Shown: one piece after another, positions 86 to 4,795 of the stretch | How the letters are laid out: each line of letters opens with the position of its first letter | Position numbering within the stretch: the first letter of the stretch is position 1 | IMG/VR virus record: IMGVR_UViG_2645727555_000023 | Origin: a virus | Taxonomy: Duplodnaviria; Heunggongvirae; Uroviricota; Caudoviricetes | Direction: 5' to 3' (one strand) | Length of the DNA: 4,795 nt | Notes under the pieces: model-generated | What the model saw: the letters and a program-made list of their open reading frames with translations, nothing else | Database searches by the model: none | Told to the model about the DNA's origin: nothing | Program-made: the position numbers and the translations under genes

Positions 86-178
86 CTACTCGGTAGAAAT
101 CAGCGACGGAACCAGTAAACCGTAGATGAGAGCCACTGAAAGGCCTGTGGCTACTGCCAATAGATAGATTTTGATCAT
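86..178 (-). CDS. Putative small hydrophobic peptide, 30 aa (MIKIYLLAVATGLSVALIYGLLVPSLISTE), probable single transmembrane helix
   Basis: Hand translation of the minus strand: ATG at 178-176, TAG stop at 88-86. AGGA Shine-Dalgarno at about 184-187, 5 nt upstream of the ATG. Not in the supplied ORF track (too short). Composition is almost entirely hydrophobic. No homolog recognised. Confidence 0.3.
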   Translation of the reverse strand: MIKIYLLAVATGLSVALIYGLLVPSLISTE

Positions 179-207
179 GTGTTTTCCTATGTGGTTGTTA
201 TGTGAAA

Positions 208-236
208 ATAATAAGTAAGTACTTATATATTTTCAA
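208..236 (-). promoter_or_regulatory. Candidate sigma70-type promoter (TTGAAA - 17 bp - TATTAT) reading toward the small peptide ORF
   Basis: On the minus strand: TTGAAA (236-231), 17-nt spacer, TATTAT (213-208); each hexamer is 5/6 to consensus. Lies directly after the recA terminator T-run and about 30 nt upstream of the peptide ATG. AT-rich context makes chance matches possible. Confidence 0.3.
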
Positions 237-240
237 GAGA

Positions 241-266
241 TAAAAAAGGCGTCCTGTGGACGCCTT
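241..266 (-). terminator. Rho-independent terminator downstream of the recombinase gene
   Basis: Minus-strand sequence right after the TAA stop (273-271): AAGGCGTCC-ACA-GGACGCCTT (9-bp GC-rich stem, 246-266) followed by TTTTTTA (247-241). On the plus strand it is preceded by an A-run and followed by T-rich TTGTGTTT, so it may act bidirectionally. Confidence 0.6.
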
Positions 267-270
267 GTGT

Positions 271-2610
271 TTACTCTTCTACTGACTCGGTGGGGTTGTC
301 TTTTGCTCTTCGGTCGTCGATTGCCTGCAAAGCCGCAATGATTTCAGCCAGTGGCTTCTCCCGATACATCTCGACGATCTGTGATTTGGTGTATTTCTTG
401 TCACCAATTTCAACTCGCCCGCTGGCGTTCTTTGGCAGGTATCCTTCATCCAGCATGTACTCGACGAGCGATTCGATAACGTCGAGGCCACGAGTAGGAT
501 CGAAGTAGAATTTCCAGGTGCATTTGCCATACGGTGGTGCAACTTTGTTTTTGATGCATTCTGCGCCTACGTCTTGGCCGATCTTCTCTTTACCATCCTT
601 CATCACCGATGCACCAAGACGGATACGTACAGAAGCGTAGAACTTCGGTGAATCTCCACCTGGCGACGTAGTAGGGTCGCCAAACATTACACCGATTTTT
701 GTGCGAACCTGATTCAAGAAGATGATGCAGGCGTTGTATTTGCGTGCCCACAAAGCCAGAGTAGGGAAGTTCGCACTCGTCGCACGAGCCAGTGCCGTAT
801 TGTCGTTCATGTTTAGCTGATCTTTGTCTTTGGCTGTGCCTTCAGCCATCTTTTCGAACTTCTCGGCTTTGGAGTTCGGAACCATAGACGCAAGAGAGTC
901 AGCCACGATACAGATTGGTGCTGATTCGGGGATAAGCTCTTCATCACGAACCAATTTAAGTATTGTGCCGATCAACTCTACAGAGTCTTCGAAGGTATCT
1001 GGCTGCTTGTATACCCACTGACCGTCATCCTCATCTGCGTTCAGGCCATTGGCTACAGCCAGGCCAACGTCAAAACTGTTTTCATGATCGAGGAATACCG
1101 CCAGACCATCTTGTTTTTGAGCGGAGATCATCGCTGCTGTTGCAAGGAATGTGTTGTGGCTGATAATCCCGTTAGACCAGAAAGAGTGTGTTTCCGGCAT
1201 CGCTACGTCGAACGTTGGTGCTTCACCTTCCTCAATAGCCACGACTTCGTCGTAGAACAAGTTAGAGCCAATTACCGCTGCCAGTTGTGCAAACAGATGC
1301 TCGTTAAAACGATTCTTTCTGCCAATGAAGGAGACATAGATTTCTCGCAGTTTGTCTATTCCGACACGATCGCCGCGGCCAATAACGTGGTCTACCAGAG
1401 CGTAGTCTTCACGGGTGGTCTTGGTGAGCGACTCGTAGAGTGATTTCACTAAGCCGCTGATGTGCGGAACATAGCCTGAGTAAGTGCGGTCAAAACCAAT
1501 GTCCCGTTTGGTTGCCACTGATAAACGTGCCGGAGATTCGAAACCAATCGTTGACAGAAAAAGGTCGTAATTAGAGCCACTGAATGACAGCCGGTAATAT
1601 GTATTTTCATAACCCGCGACGTGTTTTTCAGAGATAGTTGACGTAATCCCCAGATTCAGGAGCATGAGGCGAATTTGCTGTAGCAGCAGCCCACTCGCGC
1701 TTACAACCTCAATGCAGCGACCATCATTGACGTGGCATTCCAGCTCAAAGTAGCCGCGAAGGAATGCAATTTGAGCCTCGCTATTGGCGCGACGCACACT
1801 CAACGGAACCTGCTTGCCAGCAGCTTTCTCATACTCCAGACCATATTCTTTAAAAAGCAGCGAACGCACCTCTTTGCTAAACAGCACATGGTCTTCCGAG
1901 CCGTTATGTTTTCTCGTAACTGGCATCTTGTCTGATACCAGCGAAATGAGGCGGTAGTACTCATCCTTGATGAAAGGATCTGTGTTAGAAAAATTCACTG
2001 AATTTTCAGAGGCCACGTATCCGTCAGCAATTAAATAGCCCATCAGTTTTGCGATATTGGCATCCAGGTGCTGATCGCCGAATTGATGTGTGCCAACCAT
2101 TGAAGGAATCGTGTCGCCTACACTGATTTTTTCAGCATGTCGCCAGACGACATTACCTAAGTCGTCAACCACACGGATTGGGTGACGGAACGTAGCCTCG
2201 ATATAACCGCCTGATGCCAGCTTAATACGCTTGAATTTGCGACGGTTGTTCCATGTCAGGTGTGAGGTCTTCTCTATCACGCCATTTTCATTGATGAGTC
2301 CAACGTTATGCTCTACATCGCGAGTAGTGCATGTCGCTTTGTACCCTTCAATCTCAAACAACTCTTTCACTGTTACCATTCCACGCTCCGTCAGCAGCAT
2401 GGTGTCTGCGGTAACACATTTCCCCGCGCTTGGAGGACCGAATACTTCGACGATACGACCACATGGGAAGCCGCCATCGTAACGACCAGAAATAGCTTTG
2501 TTTAACGGTGGAAAGCCTGTATCAATCCAATGAGTTACTTTCTGAATTTCGTCGTTGCTACCGATTTTCTTTTTCAGAGCAAGTGCCAGTGCGGATTTTC
2601 CTTTTGCCAT
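271..2610 (-). CDS. recA: RecA-family recombinase precursor (779 aa) containing a 422-aa intein; predicted spliced product 357 aa
   Basis: Exteins align to bacterial RecA hallmarks: N-extein GRIVEVFGPPSAGK + C-extein TFLATAAMI rebuilds Walker A GPPSAGKT (RecA GPESSGKT); Walker B-like ICIVADSLASMVP; L2-loop region FLNQVRTKIGVMFGDPTTSPGGDSPKFYASVR closely matches RecA [32 protein letters not shown]. ATG at 2610 is preceded by AAAAGGAG 7 nt upstream. Symbol denotes RecA family; a phage-encoded homolog is likely. Confidence 0.9.
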   Translation of the reverse strand: MAKGKSALALALKKKIGSNDEIQKVTHWIDTGFPPLNKAISGRYDGGFPCGRIVEVFGPPSAGKCVTADTMLLTERGMVTVKELFEIEGYKATCTTRDVEHNVGLINENGVIEKTSHLTWNNRRKFKRIKLASGGYIEATFRHPIRVVDDLGNVVWRHAEKISVGDTIPSMVGTHQFGDQHLDANIAKLMGYLIADGYVASENSVNFSNTDPFIKDEYYRLISLVSDKMPVTRKHNGSEDHVLFSKEVRSLLFKEYGLEYEKAAGKQVPLSVRRANSEAQIAFLRGYFELECHVNDGRCIEVVSASGLLLQQIRLMLLNLGITSTISEKHVAGYENTYYRLSFSGSNYDLFLSTIGFESPARLSVATKRDIGFDRTYSGYVPHISGLVKSLYESLTKTTREDYALVDHVIGRGDRVGIDKLREIYVSFIGRKNRFNEHLFAQLAAVIGSNLFYDEVVAIEEGEAPTFDVAMPETHSFWSNGIISHNTFLATAAMISAQKQDGLAVFLDHENSFDVGLAVANGLNADEDDGQWVYKQPDTFEDSVELIGTILKLVRDEELIPESAPICIVADSLASMVPNSKAEKFEKMAEGTAKDKDQLNMNDNTALARATSANFPTLALWARKYNACIIFLNQVRTKIGVMFGDPTTSPGGDSPKFYASVRIRLGASVMKDGKEKIGQDVGAECIKNKVAPPYGKCTWKFYFDPTRGLDVIESLVEYMLDEGYLPKNASGRVEIGDKKYTKSQIVEMYREKPLAEIIAALQAIDDRRAKDNPTESVEE
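1153..2418 (-). mobile_element. Intein (422 aa) with LAGLIDADG homing-endonuclease domain, inserted in the recombinase P-loop between Lys64 and Thr(+1)
   Basis: Starts with Cys (TGT at 2418-2416) in a block-A-like CVTADTMLLTERG. Block B TFRHPIRVV (TxxH). Two LAGLIDADG motifs: LMGYLIADG (2046-2020) and LRGYFELEC (1761-1735). Blocks F/G TFDVAMPETHSFWSNGIISHN end in His-Asn (AAC at 1155-1153) followed by Thr +1. Removing it restores a contiguous 357-aa RecA. Confidence 0.85.
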
Positions 2611-2612
2611 GA

Positions 2613-2879
2613 TCAGGCTCCTTTTGTTTCGTTGATTCGTTTTACAGCGGCGGATTCATCGAATACAATCGCATCGTGGTTAAGGAGTCTGGATACACGA
2701 GCGAGGATTTTTACGACCTGCTCGCTGACTAATCCAAACTCGCGATCTGTCGCTTTCATTCCGGCAGCGCCTAGAATTGACGGCAGTGCGATGACAGCGT
2801 ACTCACCGTGATAAAAGACAATCTCTTTTGCCAGTTGGGCAGGGGTGGTTGTAGCGCCATTGATAATCGATTTAAGCAT
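2613..2879 (-). CDS. Hypothetical small protein (~88 aa), translationally coupled between the exonuclease and recombinase genes
   Basis: ORF track gives 2613..2885 from a TTG. The in-frame ATG at 2879-2877 overlaps the exonuclease TAA stop (2881-2879) as TAATG and is the more likely start. No recognisable motif; function unknown. Confidence 0.55.
   Translation of the reverse strand: MLKSIINGATTTPAQLAKEIVFYHGEYAVIALPSILGAAGMKATDREFGLVSEQVVKILARVSRLLNHDAIVFDESAAVKRINETKGA
2618..2624 (-). promoter_or_regulatory. Shine-Dalgarno (AAAAGGAG) for the recombinase gene, embedded in the 3' end of the upstream small ORF
   Basis: Minus-strand AAAAGGAG lies 7 nt upstream of ATG 2610 and overlaps the last codons (K-G-A) of the upstream ORF, whose TGA stop (2615-2613) sits 2 nt before the ATG: translational coupling. 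Confidence 0.6.
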
Positions 2880-3823
2880 TAGCAATACCTTTCGAATGGA
2901 AGAACAAACACTTCAAGGTCTTCAAGGAACGAACGGAAATTCAGCTCGTAGCACAGTTGCTCGAATGCTTTCACGTCACGATTGCCTTTGATTGTTTCGA
3001 TTTCGGTAGGCGGAAACTTCGTCTCAATCAGGTTCATTAGCGTGATGTTTCTCTTGAACGCTTCGAGCATTCGACAGCCTGTTTTCTCGTTGAAGGCATT
3101 CTTCGCTAGTTTGTTGAAGGCGGTCTTATGGCGTCCTTTGTCAACCACGATTGAGCCGTCGTTGATGCCGCGTACCATCGTTGCGACACTTCCCCATTCA
3201 TGCAGCAGCTCTTTCGCACCGCCAGCACCAATGCCACCAACACCGCTAATGTTGTCCGATTTATCGCCTTGTAATGCTTTTGCTTCCAAAAATGCGCGAG
3301 GAGTAGCGAATCCTGTCAGCTCCGCAAATTGCTCAAAATTAACCTGCTTGTTTTTGGCGTCTTCGCGCAGGCTTACCCAGCTTACGTTTTCGCGAACTAA
3401 CTGAAGCCAGTCGCTATCGCCTGTTAACAGATAGATGTGTTCAACGGTTGGCTGCGGTGCCATGCGGGATACCAGCAGCCCGGCCAGATCATCCGCTTCT
3501 GCATCTTTTGCAATGAGTTGGGTAACTCCAAGCGCGGTCATCATTTTGAGGATGTATGGCTTCTGGATAGCAAAGCCTTCCTTCATCTTTTTCATATCAG
3601 GATCGTCGTCGCGATTTGCTTTGTAGTCCGGGTAAAAGTCGCGACGCTTGTCACTAAATCCATCCCAAAGAATCATAGGTCGGGCATGGAGGATGGAGGC
3701 ATAACGACGGACGTTCTTAACAAAGCCGAAAGCAGCCTGTACTTCCATTTCGCCGTTGTGCAATTTGTCAGATTGTTGGTGGTAATAACCCAGGCTATTG
3801 CCATCTACGAAGAGATAATTCAC
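2879..3823 (-). CDS. 5'-3' exonuclease / flap endonuclease (FEN family, Pol I 5'-nuclease-like)
   Basis: N-terminal motif NYLFVDGNSLGYY (compare Pol I 5'-nuclease LILVDGSSYLYRAYHA), acidic cluster LLTGDSDWLQLV, and H3TH motif ALQGDKSDNISGVGGIGAGGAKELLHEWGS (compare Taq ALTGDESDNLPGVKGIGEKTARKLLEEWGS). ORF track starts at GTG 3874; the in-frame GTG at 3823-3821 with GGAAGGAA SD 8 nt upstream is preferred because codons 2-12 of the longer ORF are the terminator hairpin and T-run. Stop TAA at 2881-2879. Confidence 0.85.
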   Translation of the reverse strand: MNYLFVDGNSLGYYHQQSDKLHNGEMEVQAAFGFVKNVRRYASILHARPMILWDGFSDKRRDFYPDYKANRDDDPDMKKMKEGFAIQKPYILKMMTALGVTQLIAKDAEADDLAGLLVSRMAPQPTVEHIYLLTGDSDWLQLVRENVSWVSLREDAKNKQVNFEQFAELTGFATPRAFLEAKALQGDKSDNISGVGGIGAGGAKELLHEWGSVATMVRGINDGSIVVDKGRHKTAFNKLAKNAFNEKTGCRMLEAFKRNITLMNLIETKFPPTEIETIKGNRDVKAFEQLCYELNFRSFLEDLEVFVLPFERYC

Positions 3824-3838
3824 CGGTACATTCCTTCC

Positions 3839-3867
3839 AAAAAGTAAGGCGTCCGTAGACGCCTTAC
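3839..3867 (-). terminator. Rho-independent terminator or attenuator between the SSB-like gene and the exonuclease gene
   Basis: Minus strand, 17 nt after the SSB-like TAA stop: GTAAGGCGTC-TACG-GACGCCTTAC (10-bp stem, 3867-3844) followed by TTTTT (3843-3839), then the SD and GTG of the exonuclease. Stem arms AAGGCGTC/GACGCCTT are identical to those of the terminator at 246-266. Confidence 0.55.
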
Positions 3868-3883
3868 TGGTCACGTAATGGGA

Positions 3884-4651
3884 TTACAGAGAGTCCAGTT
3901 CTCTCAGTAGGTCATCCAGACCTTCATCTTCCGTCGCAGATGCGGTTGCTACAGATGTCGCTGCTACTGCTTCAGACTCTTTGACTGATACGGCAACGGC
4001 AGCGGAACTTGCTTCTGGTTTAAATTCAGTTTCAACGGCACGGAGGATTTCTTCATCAACCAGACTGGTTGGTTCAGAAGCTGGGGTGTGAGCGGTTGCT
4101 ACAGCAGTCGCACCCTCCGTATGACCAGTGACAGAGCCAAATCCAGGCAGTGCCGCGGCCGATGTTTTCGCGGTAGAGGAAATTGCTGGTGCAGATGCTG
4201 CGGCAGTTGGTGCAGCGATGCCAATCAGACGACCCATAGTGCGAACTGTCGACAGAAGACGAGTTTCATCAGCCTGATTTGCGTATGCGATCAGATCATG
4301 CTGGGTGTTCCAGAATTTATCTTCGATATCGCCTTTGTAGACTTTACGCTTAGGCGAGACGTCATATTTGGTATCGCGACCAGAACCAGTACGTTTAATC
4401 AGGAATGCGTAGCCTTCCTCTTTGCTCAGTGGATTGCCGATATCATCAGCGATGTCTTCGGTGATTGCTTTGCAGATATCATCGAATACAGTAGACGGCA
4501 GCTCGATTAACTGGCATTTCTCAGCATCTGCGAAATCCTCACGAGCAGAAAGAATGCCGTTGACCAGGTAGCGAGGAGTGGCACGCATTTGACCGATGCG
4601 TTCTTCCATTGCTTTGTTACCCTTGTGACGAGCGCGACCTTCCATAACCAT
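3884..4651 (-). CDS. Putative ssDNA-binding protein (gp32-like features), probably a 3' fragment of a gene disrupted by the adjacent IS element
   Basis: Long Ala/Ser/Thr-rich low-complexity linker ending in acidic tail EDEGLDDLLRELDSL, typical of SSB C-termini. The frame stays open upstream of the first ATG up to the IS boundary (4701) and encodes C-x8-C-x2-C (YICEQHTHGRACQLCEM), reminiscent of the T4 gp32 zinc site. No Shine-Dalgarno precedes ATG 4651 or 4645. Functional call is motif-level only. Confidence 0.5.
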   Translation of the reverse strand: MVMEGRARHKGNKAMEERIGQMRATPRYLVNGILSAREDFADAEKCQLIELPSTVFDDICKAITEDIADDIGNPLSKEEGYAFLIKRTGSGRDTKYDVSPKRKVYKGDIEDKFWNTQHDLIAYANQADETRLLSTVRTMGRLIGIAAPTAAASAPAISSTAKTSAAALPGFGSVTGHTEGATAVATAHTPASEPTSLVDEEILRAVETEFKPEASSAAVAVSVKESEAVAATSVATASATEDEGLDDLLRELDSL

Positions 4652-4701
4652 TTCGCATAGCTGACAAGCGCGACCGTGAGTATGTTGCTCACAAATATAA
4701 G

Positions 4702-4795
4702 TGAACCGCCCCGGGAATCCTGGAGACTAAACTTCCTGAGAAAGAGGTAAACAGGATGACTAAAAATACTCGTTTTTCCCCTGAAGTCCGTCAAC
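4702..4795 (+). mobile_element. Left end of an IS3-family insertion sequence (IS629/IS1203-like), continuing beyond the window
   Basis: Sequence begins TGAACCGCCCCGGG at 4702 (IS3-family termini start 5'-TG). It is followed by GAGG SD and an ATG at 4756 opening an ORF MTKNTRFSPEVRQ..., which matches from memory the N-terminus of IS629-group OrfA transposases. Exact IS identity is unverified. Confidence 0.7.
4756..4795 (+). CDS. IS3-family transposase OrfA, N-terminal 13 codons (partial, runs off window)
   Basis: ATG at 4756-4758 with GAGGT 7 nt upstream; translation MTKNTRFSPEVRQ. Recognition is from recalled IS629/IS1203 OrfA sequence. Confidence 0.7.
   Translation, partial: MTKNTRFSPEVRQ

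Follow-up and report, generated by a model that had tools for sequence, protein, structure and literature searches.

A recurring GGCGTC hairpin, putatively a copied terminator, at module borders of SSU5-type phage-plasmids

The locus and its two hairpins

The window analysed here is a stretch of viral DNA of 4,795 nt whose genes all run on the minus strand, making this the coding strand throughout. Positions 89-4701 are 99.0-99.4% identical to E. coli plasmids of ~105-115 kb, and phage Cyrano and Salmonella phage SSU5 are 97.8% and ~80% identical to the window, respectively. Judged by these matches, the window is a 4.6-kb piece of an SSU5-type E. coli phage-plasmid between two insertion sequences. 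Homology to SSU5-type plasmids begins around position 89. Positions 1-94 belong to the end of an IS91-family element, for which large E. coli plasmids carry 100% identical copies that adjoin an IS91-family transposase; the membrane-protein gene is broken by this end at ~89-94. At the opposite side, positions 4702-4795 are the left end of IS629 (TGAACCGCCCCGGG..., orfA start MTKNTRFSPEVRQ), which lies inside the gp32-like SSB gene. Only 272 of the 342 codons of this gene are retained after the insertion, and the SSU5-type segment in the window's replicon is therefore probably a defective remnant. The recA gene carries a LAGLIDADG-type intein of ~420 aa in the P-loop (GPPSAGK|C...HN|T); the SSU5, Klebsiella, Cronobacter and K. 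oxytoca relatives have intein-less recA genes of ~1.08 kb. The features of the window are the following:

89-178, minus strand: 5' part of the gene for a 66-aa membrane protein, which opens the block between sites 1 and 3
208-236, minus strand: predicted sigma70-type promoter TTGAAA-17-TATTAT, ~6 nt past the site 1 U-run
242-266, minus strand: site 1, predicted terminator (hairpin 246-266, U-run from 247 down to 242)
271-2610, minus strand: RecA-like recombinase gene with LAGLIDADG intein (stop codon 271-273), ended by site 1
2613-2879, minus strand: 88-aa gene with no assigned function, between the exonuclease gene and recA and in one transcription unit with both
2879-3823, minus strand: 5'-3' exonuclease (FEN-type) gene, GTG start at 3823
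3839-3868, minus strand: site 2, predicted attenuator/terminator (hairpin 3843-3868, five U from 3843 down to 3839)
3884-4701, minus strand: gp32-like SSB gene, 3' part only; cut by IS629 at 4702 and ending ahead of site 2

The 8-mer AAGGCGTC is found at 246-253 (+), 259-266 (-), 3846-3853 (+) and 3858-3865 (-), i.e. four matches where 0.14 are expected, a number that none of 200 dinucleotide-preserving shuffles reached. The AAGGCGTC/GACGCCTT arms form hairpins at 246-266 and 3846-3865. An original prediction, made from the letters of the window, had described two hairpins with identical 8-bp arms, differing loops and minus-strand T-runs at both sites, all of which is borne out, as is its assignment of the neighbouring genes (recA, SSB-like, exonuclease). 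The second hairpin is likewise real, its extent of 3843-3868 (11 bp) being slightly wider than the 3844-3867 originally given.

On the minus strand, site 1 reads AAGGCGTCC-ACA-GGACGCCTT followed by TTTTATC (as RNA, AAGGCGUCC-ACA-GGACGCCUU followed by UUUUAUC). The hairpin has 9 bp with 6-7 G-C pairs and begins 4 nt past the stop codon of the intein-containing RecA gene, and its 51-nt context folds with -20.6 kcal/mol (z = -5.4 against shuffles). Site 2 reads AGTAAGGCGTC-TACG-GACGCCTTACT followed by TTTTGG (as RNA, AGUAAGGCGUC-UACG-GACGCCUUACU followed by UUUUGG), has 11 bp and gives -21.9 kcal/mol in its context (z = -3.5 against shuffles). It is positioned 15 nt past the SSB stop codon and 25 nt ahead of the exonuclease start, with its U-run abutting the exonuclease Shine-Dalgarno GGAAGG. 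The loop of site 2 in the window, C-UACG-G, is a C(UNCG)G tetraloop, a loop type that gives extra stability to hairpins.

Together with a third copy present in intact relatives (site 3, see below), the stems of 9 (site 1), 11 (site 2) and 8 bp (site 3) and the loops of 3-4 nt lie within the range of intrinsic terminator hairpins (stem ~5-14 bp, loop 3-8 nt). The three hairpins alone fold with -14 to -19 kcal/mol, and their contexts with -15.6 to -21.9 kcal/mol (z = -3.5 to -5.4). The U-tract required of intrinsic terminators (PMC3993855) is present as CCUUUUUUAUC at sites 1 and 3 and as ...UUACUUUUUGG (five U) at site 2; a simple terminator scan flags sites 1 and 3 and misses site 2, which has the shorter tail. 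Placement and pairing are also those of intrinsic terminators, the hairpins being downstream of a gene on the coding strand with their pairing kept and limited covariation. An Rfam scan of the window (E <= 1) found no known RNA family, only two sub-threshold chance matches.

Promoter-like sites on the coding strand were predicted upstream of the SSB gene and directly after site 1, in a scan where promoter predictions occur at chance density. The latter site (208-236), within which lies the inverted-repeat motif AAGTACTTACTTAT, would be the promoter of the membrane protein/SPFH block. The scan gave none at site 3, nor between site 2 and the exonuclease start, where site 2 leaves no space for one, and the exonuclease gene would consequently have to be read by transcription through site 2. 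The inverted-repeat motif, in its E. coli type ATAAGTAAGTAC / AAGTACTTACTTAT, occupies ~10 intergenic regions per genome, where it overlaps sigma70-like promoters; its positions in the intact plasmid pAVS0223-B (L001-L003) are 4224, 9029, 23038, 25539, 29844, 45723, 57700, 59211, 102355 and 107035. The arms of the motif differ by lineage (TAGGTAGGTAACTACCTA in Cronobacter, TAAGTAAATGCTTACTTA in K. oxytoca), which suggests that it is the operator of a lineage-specific regulator. A different palindrome, AAGAAAACAA(T/A)TTGTTT, is located between site 3 and the next gene (L001 3060-3110; also in SSU5, L004, and the Cronobacter plasmid). It persists from lineage to lineage amid variable surrounding sequence and may be a further regulatory site.

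Further copies and their conservation in the SSU5 family

The closest intact relative, pAVS0223-B, was assembled (108,564 bp, 99.4% identical). The 16-nt full pattern is found there at sites 1 and 2 only, and the third hairpin, AGGCGUCC-AGUU-GGACGCCU followed by UUUUUAUC, lies at 3121-3140 (-). This site 3 comes after the SPFH-domain gene, 1,138 bp downstream of site 1; relative to the window, it would lie ~890 nt beyond the left end if it has survived past the IS91-family insertion, the collections having yielded no intact version of the window's own replicon. Sites 1 and 3 have 16 consecutive bases in common, comprising the 3' arm plus the tail (GGACGCCTTTTTTATC). AGGCGTC-loop-GACGCCT occurs three times in the 108.6 kb of pAVS0223-B, which otherwise holds ~30 strong terminator-like hairpins with different arms. 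A G/C core of at least 6 nt is common to ~1% of the hairpin pairs outside the site 1-3 trio, and the crude expectation of a stem-sharing trio based on the 6-nt core is a few tenths per genome. On this statistic a chance trio is unlikely, not astronomically so; the statistic is weak alone, and the case thus rests on comparative evidence. Repeated terminator stems are not unique to the GGCGTC hairpin in these genomes, as a second family, AGCGCCCA-CTA-TGGGCGCT, recurs in two or three tandem copies (pAVS0223-B 69178-69245; Cronobacter plasmid 74021, 74066 and 74314; K. oxytoca plasmid 12977 and 13019).

Two complete plasmids of distant lineages were also assembled, namely the Cronobacter JZ38 plasmid and K. 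oxytoca pCAV1099-111; these lineages had no match among GenBank phage records and were found among plasmids. The Cronobacter plasmid keeps the stem at sites 2 and 3 and has an unrelated hairpin (GAGGGGUGC...) after recA. It carries a new copy after the DUF3927 gene, a position occupied by unrelated stems in E. coli and K. oxytoca, and this copy equals the plasmid's own site 2 over 20 nt, loop included. The K. oxytoca plasmid likewise keeps sites 2 and 3, with a U.G pair at site 3, has an unrelated hairpin at site 1, and contains extra related copies at 14878 (-) and, in imperfect form, after the DnaB-like gene. The new copies are located at borders between conserved and variable genes. Counted per genome, pAVS0223-B has three copies, the Cronobacter plasmid three and an additional arm-flipped one, and the K. 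oxytoca plasmid 3-5. All are intergenic and downstream of a gene on the coding strand, and all have a U-run except the hairpin at K. oxytoca 26605.

This exception (L405), GGGCGTC-ATAT-GGCGCCC, is a U.G stem variant without a U-run. It follows a gene with an Ig-like domain (26154..26597), at a distance of one gene downstream from the major capsid gene, and may stabilise mRNA instead of terminating transcription. The arm-flipped hairpin, AGACGCCC-TTCT-GGGCGTCT followed by a T9 run, comes after a pyrophosphohydrolase gene at 50827 of the Cronobacter plasmid (L403, ~1827). It has the base composition of the family with every pair flipped, and is a candidate relative.

The prediction had staked itself on further copies existing, and the search of intact relatives found them. 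Its idea of a family of terminators is supported by the third copy in pAVS0223-B, the stem conserved across the SSU5 family and the further sites in Cronobacter and K. oxytoca. The element does recur as proposed; its supposed specificity to one genome did not survive, the hairpin being shared across a phage-plasmid family at 3-5 copies per genome.

Occurrence outside the family was surveyed by scanning IMG/VR with the pattern AGGCGTCC-N3-4-GGACGCCT. The palindrome was found in 111 stretches, ~70 of them SSU5-like, and these include every two-copy stretch examined. The other ~40 hold single copies, mostly terminator-like and in unrelated phages, at about the estimated chance level (for an assumed collection size of ~60 Gb). 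Among species-representative bacterial genomes, the originally proposed pattern matched at least 120 stretches; in the bacterial matches listed, all were single and in scattered taxa, none was SSU5-like or clustered, and 58 of 120 were terminator-like. As the bacterial and viral occurrences elsewhere are single, clustered recurrence appears to be a property of the SSU5-type phage-plasmid family. A host-wide repeat of the REP or uptake-sequence kind was also considered and set aside, given only single scattered occurrences among the bacterial matches listed.

Conservation was examined across 80 IMG/VR loci, retrieved via the exonuclease protein, together with SSU5, Cyrano and a Klebsiella phage. 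Throughout this set all three sites retain the GGCGTC(C)/(G)GACGCC stem, whether the lineage is of E. coli, Salmonella or Klebsiella, and the loops and flanks vary. Site 1 loops include ACA, AUU, GUU, AAAC and GAAU, and site 3 loops are AGUU or ACUU. At site 2 the loop is UACG, in a few cases UGCG, and UUCG in the Cronobacter, K. oxytoca and L333 lineages; with UUCG replacing UACG in the distant lineages, the site 2 loop always has the C(UNCG)G form. The sense-strand variants comprise several changes from A-U to G.U at the stem base, one from G-C to G.U in a single locus, and a compensatory series at one core pair (U-A to U.G to C-G). Overall, 96% of cells pair, and two pairs show changes on both sides. 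The covariation appears real but thin, since four core pairs never vary in any of the sequences and only these two change on both sides; it exceeds a shuffle control moderately, with 14-34 of 500 shuffles reaching the observed values. The site 2 hairpin forms an invariant island, AGGCGTCT-N-CGGACGCCTTA, across six lineages with exonuclease identities of 64-100%, between an unalignable upstream spacer and a partly conserved downstream ribosome-binding region.

Control terminators put this conservation in perspective. In the E. coli, Cronobacter and K. oxytoca lineages, stems are retained by the terminators behind the major capsid gene and ahead of nrdA, and those after the GrxA, DUF3927, DnaB-like and recA genes are replaced across the same lineages. 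As control terminators keep their stems too, conservation at one site is ordinary, and recurrence at several sites is the unusual part; the capsid-gene and nrdA controls weaken any argument for a special sequence constraint from conservation alone. Strict concerted evolution of the copies was also discarded, as some genomes have GGCGCCC/GGGCGCC at site 1 and GGCGTCC/GGACGCC at site 3.

The membrane protein-SPFH block and its junctions

Sites 1 and 3 are direct repeats around a block of a small membrane protein gene and an SPFH-domain gene, an arrangement that the original prediction did not foresee: two of the copies frame genes that are variably present. Among the ~70 IMG/VR loci scored downstream of recA, the order recA-hairpin-membrane protein-SPFH-hairpin is found in ~40, and in 22 the block is absent and a single hairpin is left. 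Block-absent loci (L119, L154, L185/L006) were compared with L120 and L178. The E. coli-type L119 has the left flank and ACA loop of site 1 and the right flank of site 3, placing the crossover within the 16 nt of 3' arm plus tail common to both sites. In the SSU5/Klebsiella-type L154 the left flank is from site 1 and both the ACUU loop and the right flank are from site 3, so that the crossover falls in the 5' arm. L185 and phage ST13-OXA48phi12.3 combine the AUU loop of site 1 with a site 3-type right flank, the crossover of L185 lying, as in L119, in the 3' arm plus tail. Left flank types are freely paired with right ones in no fewer than five lineage backgrounds, and the homology common to both repeats at the deletion junctions is only 7-16 nt. 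The E. coli-type junction is found as one uninterrupted match in at least eight complete E. coli plasmids; 203 plasmids match the junction query, most of them splitting it over two places.

The block is present in the most divergent lineages, and its absence is hence most simply explained as repeated loss between direct repeats. Such loss may have occurred by homologous recombination or by slippage, and we infer the mechanism and direction of each event from the sequences compared. A corresponding loss of exonuclease-recA, by deletion from site 2 to site 1, was sought and not found; every site-2-type hairpin in SSU5-like contigs is followed by the exonuclease gene, and recombination of site 2 with other copies was never seen among the loci compared.

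Interpretation and relation to known systems

The combined observations make it probable, at roughly 70%, that the hairpins of the leftward recombination/replication cluster are Rho-independent terminators which form a small family of copies and have also served as recombination junctions at module borders. RNA polymerase would initiate ahead of the gp32-like SSB gene, at the promoter predicted there, and meet, at site 2, a very stable C(UNCG)G-capped hairpin, the most stable of the set, followed by the shortest U-run (five U), where part of the transcripts would end. This would yield abundant SSB mRNA with a protected 3' end, and the remaining transcripts would continue into exonuclease-p90-recA, resulting in lower expression of the enzymes. 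Site 1 would close the exonuclease-p90-recA unit 4 nt past the recA stop, with the putative sigma70-type promoter of the next block directly after it, and site 3 would end the membrane protein-SPFH block in intact relatives. Termination as such requires no one particular stem sequence; the identical arms would stem from copying of the hairpins between intergenic sites within the SSU5-type phage family. Hairpins copied in this manner would consequently act as short direct repeats at module borders, and recombination or replication slippage between sites 1 and 3 would remove the block and leave one chimeric hairpin. The parts of this model that we infer are termination with its efficiency, transcription past site 2, and the enzymes behind copying and deletion. 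A more far-reaching proposal is that the GGCGUC hairpin is a family-specific linker cassette, actively copied to new intergenic sites to swap or shed modules, and a temperate-phage counterpart of the PeSL elements discussed below, possibly helped by the phage's own RecA/UvsY/gp32/exonuclease genes, between which the hairpins lie, or by a stem-recognising factor. We regard this proposal as possible, though less likely than not.

Several other explanations were weighed against that of copied terminators. That the two hairpins of the window are independent, ordinary terminators, with arms that coincide through a limited repertoire of A-tracts and G/C-rich stems, would fit the sporadic appearance of the palindrome as a terminator-like hairpin in unrelated phages and bacteria, the ~1% of terminator pairs that have a 6-nt core in common by chance, and the unrelated stems that can follow recA in Cronobacter and K. 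oxytoca. It is nevertheless very unlikely, considering that a third copy lies within the same 5 kb of the intact relative, that genomes of the family have the stem at up to 4-5 sites, and that outside the family the palindrome is always single per stretch among the matches listed. The 20-nt match, including the loop, between Cronobacter site 2 and the new Cronobacter copy (site 4) and the 16 nt of arm plus tail common to sites 1 and 3 speak against it as well, and the TTCG loop common to the Cronobacter copies points against convergence. A chance coincidence of the arms is rejected given the copy number, the conservation and the junction evidence. Alternatively, the palindrome may be read at the DNA level by a protein, as an operator, a partition or replication site or a restriction-modification target, the hairpin being incidental. 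The strongly invariant core and the perfect inverted repeat would suit such a role, as would the fact that all variants keep GRCGYC (an AcyI/BsaHI-type site) in each arm. All of the variants are transitions, however, which keep R and Y anyway, so that the retention of GRCGYC carries no information and the restriction-site reading could be dropped. In addition, the arm spacing varies (loops of 3, 4, 5 and 6 nt) with free loop sequence, the variants produce G.U on the sense strand where the other strand would have A.C mismatches, the copies sit in intergenic positions downstream of a gene with a T-run in all but K. oxytoca 26605, and a much better operator candidate is present in the same intergenic regions. 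The protein-recognised palindrome offered by the original prediction finds no support, given the variable loops, the sense-strand wobbles and compensatory changes, and the placement after genes, and we consider a DNA site very improbable.

The hairpin could also be mainly an RNA processing, stability or regulatory element for a sequence-specific RNA-binding factor, with termination secondary; it might then be a 3'-end protector, a stabilising 5' stem-loop on the exonuclease transcript or a site at which a translational regulator acts. A role in stabilising RNA, among the options of the original prediction, would be consistent with the observations. Site 2 is where this idea has its appeal, the hairpin being 8 nt ahead of the exonuclease Shine-Dalgarno and, together with its UNCG-type loop and the downstream ACTTTTTGGAAGGA, invariant in most lineages next to a free upstream spacer. 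Moreover, seven core pairs are fully invariant at site 2, with no compensatory change, which is beyond what structure demands and could reflect a sequence-specific partner. The other copies, in contrast, are not beside a translation start, site 1 tolerates wobble, compensatory change and replacement of the whole hairpin, and stems are conserved to a similar degree in the control terminators. The SSU5 family is not known to have such a factor, and there is the null result of the Rfam scan. A terminator hairpin protects 3' ends anyway, and the explanation therefore overlaps that of copied terminators; as a separate explanation it seems rather unlikely.

SSU5-type phage-plasmids are frequent in clinical Enterobacteriaceae, and their variable regions harbour accessory and resistance genes. 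A terminator that marks module borders would be a testable handle on how cargo is reshuffled without breaking operon control, and likewise on unequal expression within the recombination/replication cluster, with abundant SSB and less exonuclease and RecA. It would also provide a simple operon-end motif for annotating the SSU5-type family. The knowledge of termination itself is unchanged by the finding. Our literature search found no paper on terminators or intergenic repeats in SSU5/pHCM2-type elements.

In anatomy the hairpins are no different from intrinsic terminators: closely behind a stop codon, the coding strand shows 8-11 bp of G+C-rich stem with a short loop, directly followed by a U-run. 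The unusual feature is the recurrence of a single stem at several sites per genome. Site 2, between a bulk protein (SSB) and enzymes required in small amounts, is placed similarly to the intra-operon attenuators, internal terminators that set subunit stoichiometry (PMC9045158). The hairpins also bring to mind repeats with identical palindrome arms at many gene ends that can terminate transcription or stabilise mRNA.

Among such repeats, the REP/BIME elements of E. coli and uptake-sequence palindromes number hundreds to thousands of copies per chromosome and spread through uptake selection or a dedicated transposase (REP/RAYT). Terminators formed from inverted DNA-uptake sequences have reportedly been described in Neisseria and Haemophilus by Kingsford et al. 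in 2007. Unlike these, the GGCGTC hairpin has a handful of copies in one phage-plasmid family, with no uptake role and no associated transposase, and hundreds of copies per chromosome were not seen among the bacterial matches listed.

The membrane protein-SPFH block resembles a lambdoid-phage moron, a gene with its own promoter and terminator that is found only in some relatives (summarised in PMC2839356): it lies between site 1 with its predicted promoter and the site 3 terminator, and is variably present among close relatives. Classic moron insertion has been proposed to be independent of flanking homology (PMC2839356). The terminator of the present block, in contrast, is a copy of the resident upstream terminator, so that the block is framed by direct repeats; furthermore, the block seems to be ancestral, with loss as the apparent cause of its absence.

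A close parallel in arrangement may be the PeSL (promoter-early stem-loop) cassettes, repeated stem-loop terminators of T4-type phages (Arbiol et al. 2010, PMC2839356; Comeau et al. 2014, PMC4122927). Both are repeated intergenic stem-loop terminators at the borders of variable genes, sometimes with a sigma70-type promoter attached (a candidate one at site 1 here), and in both cases relatives without the flanked genes carry one chimeric element, with PeSL crossovers inside the element, stem and loop included (PMC2839356). Flanking of variable genes and chimeric single elements are thus found here as in PeSL-type cassettes. Several properties differ: T4-type genomes have ~50 copies, concentrated in hyperplastic regions, and SSU5-type genomes 3-5, far from dozens; the PeSL stem is GGGG...CCCC and not GGCGTC(C); site 2 has no attached promoter; and the hosts of the elements are virulent T4-type myoviruses in one case and temperate siphovirus phage-plasmids in the other. 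PeSL cassettes are further recognised by excised mini-circles, detectable by inverse PCR, whereas recombination at the present hairpins is deduced from a comparison of relatives. We see the GGCGTC hairpins as a probable paralogous family of intrinsic terminators comparable to PeSL cassettes, and not as a new kind of element.
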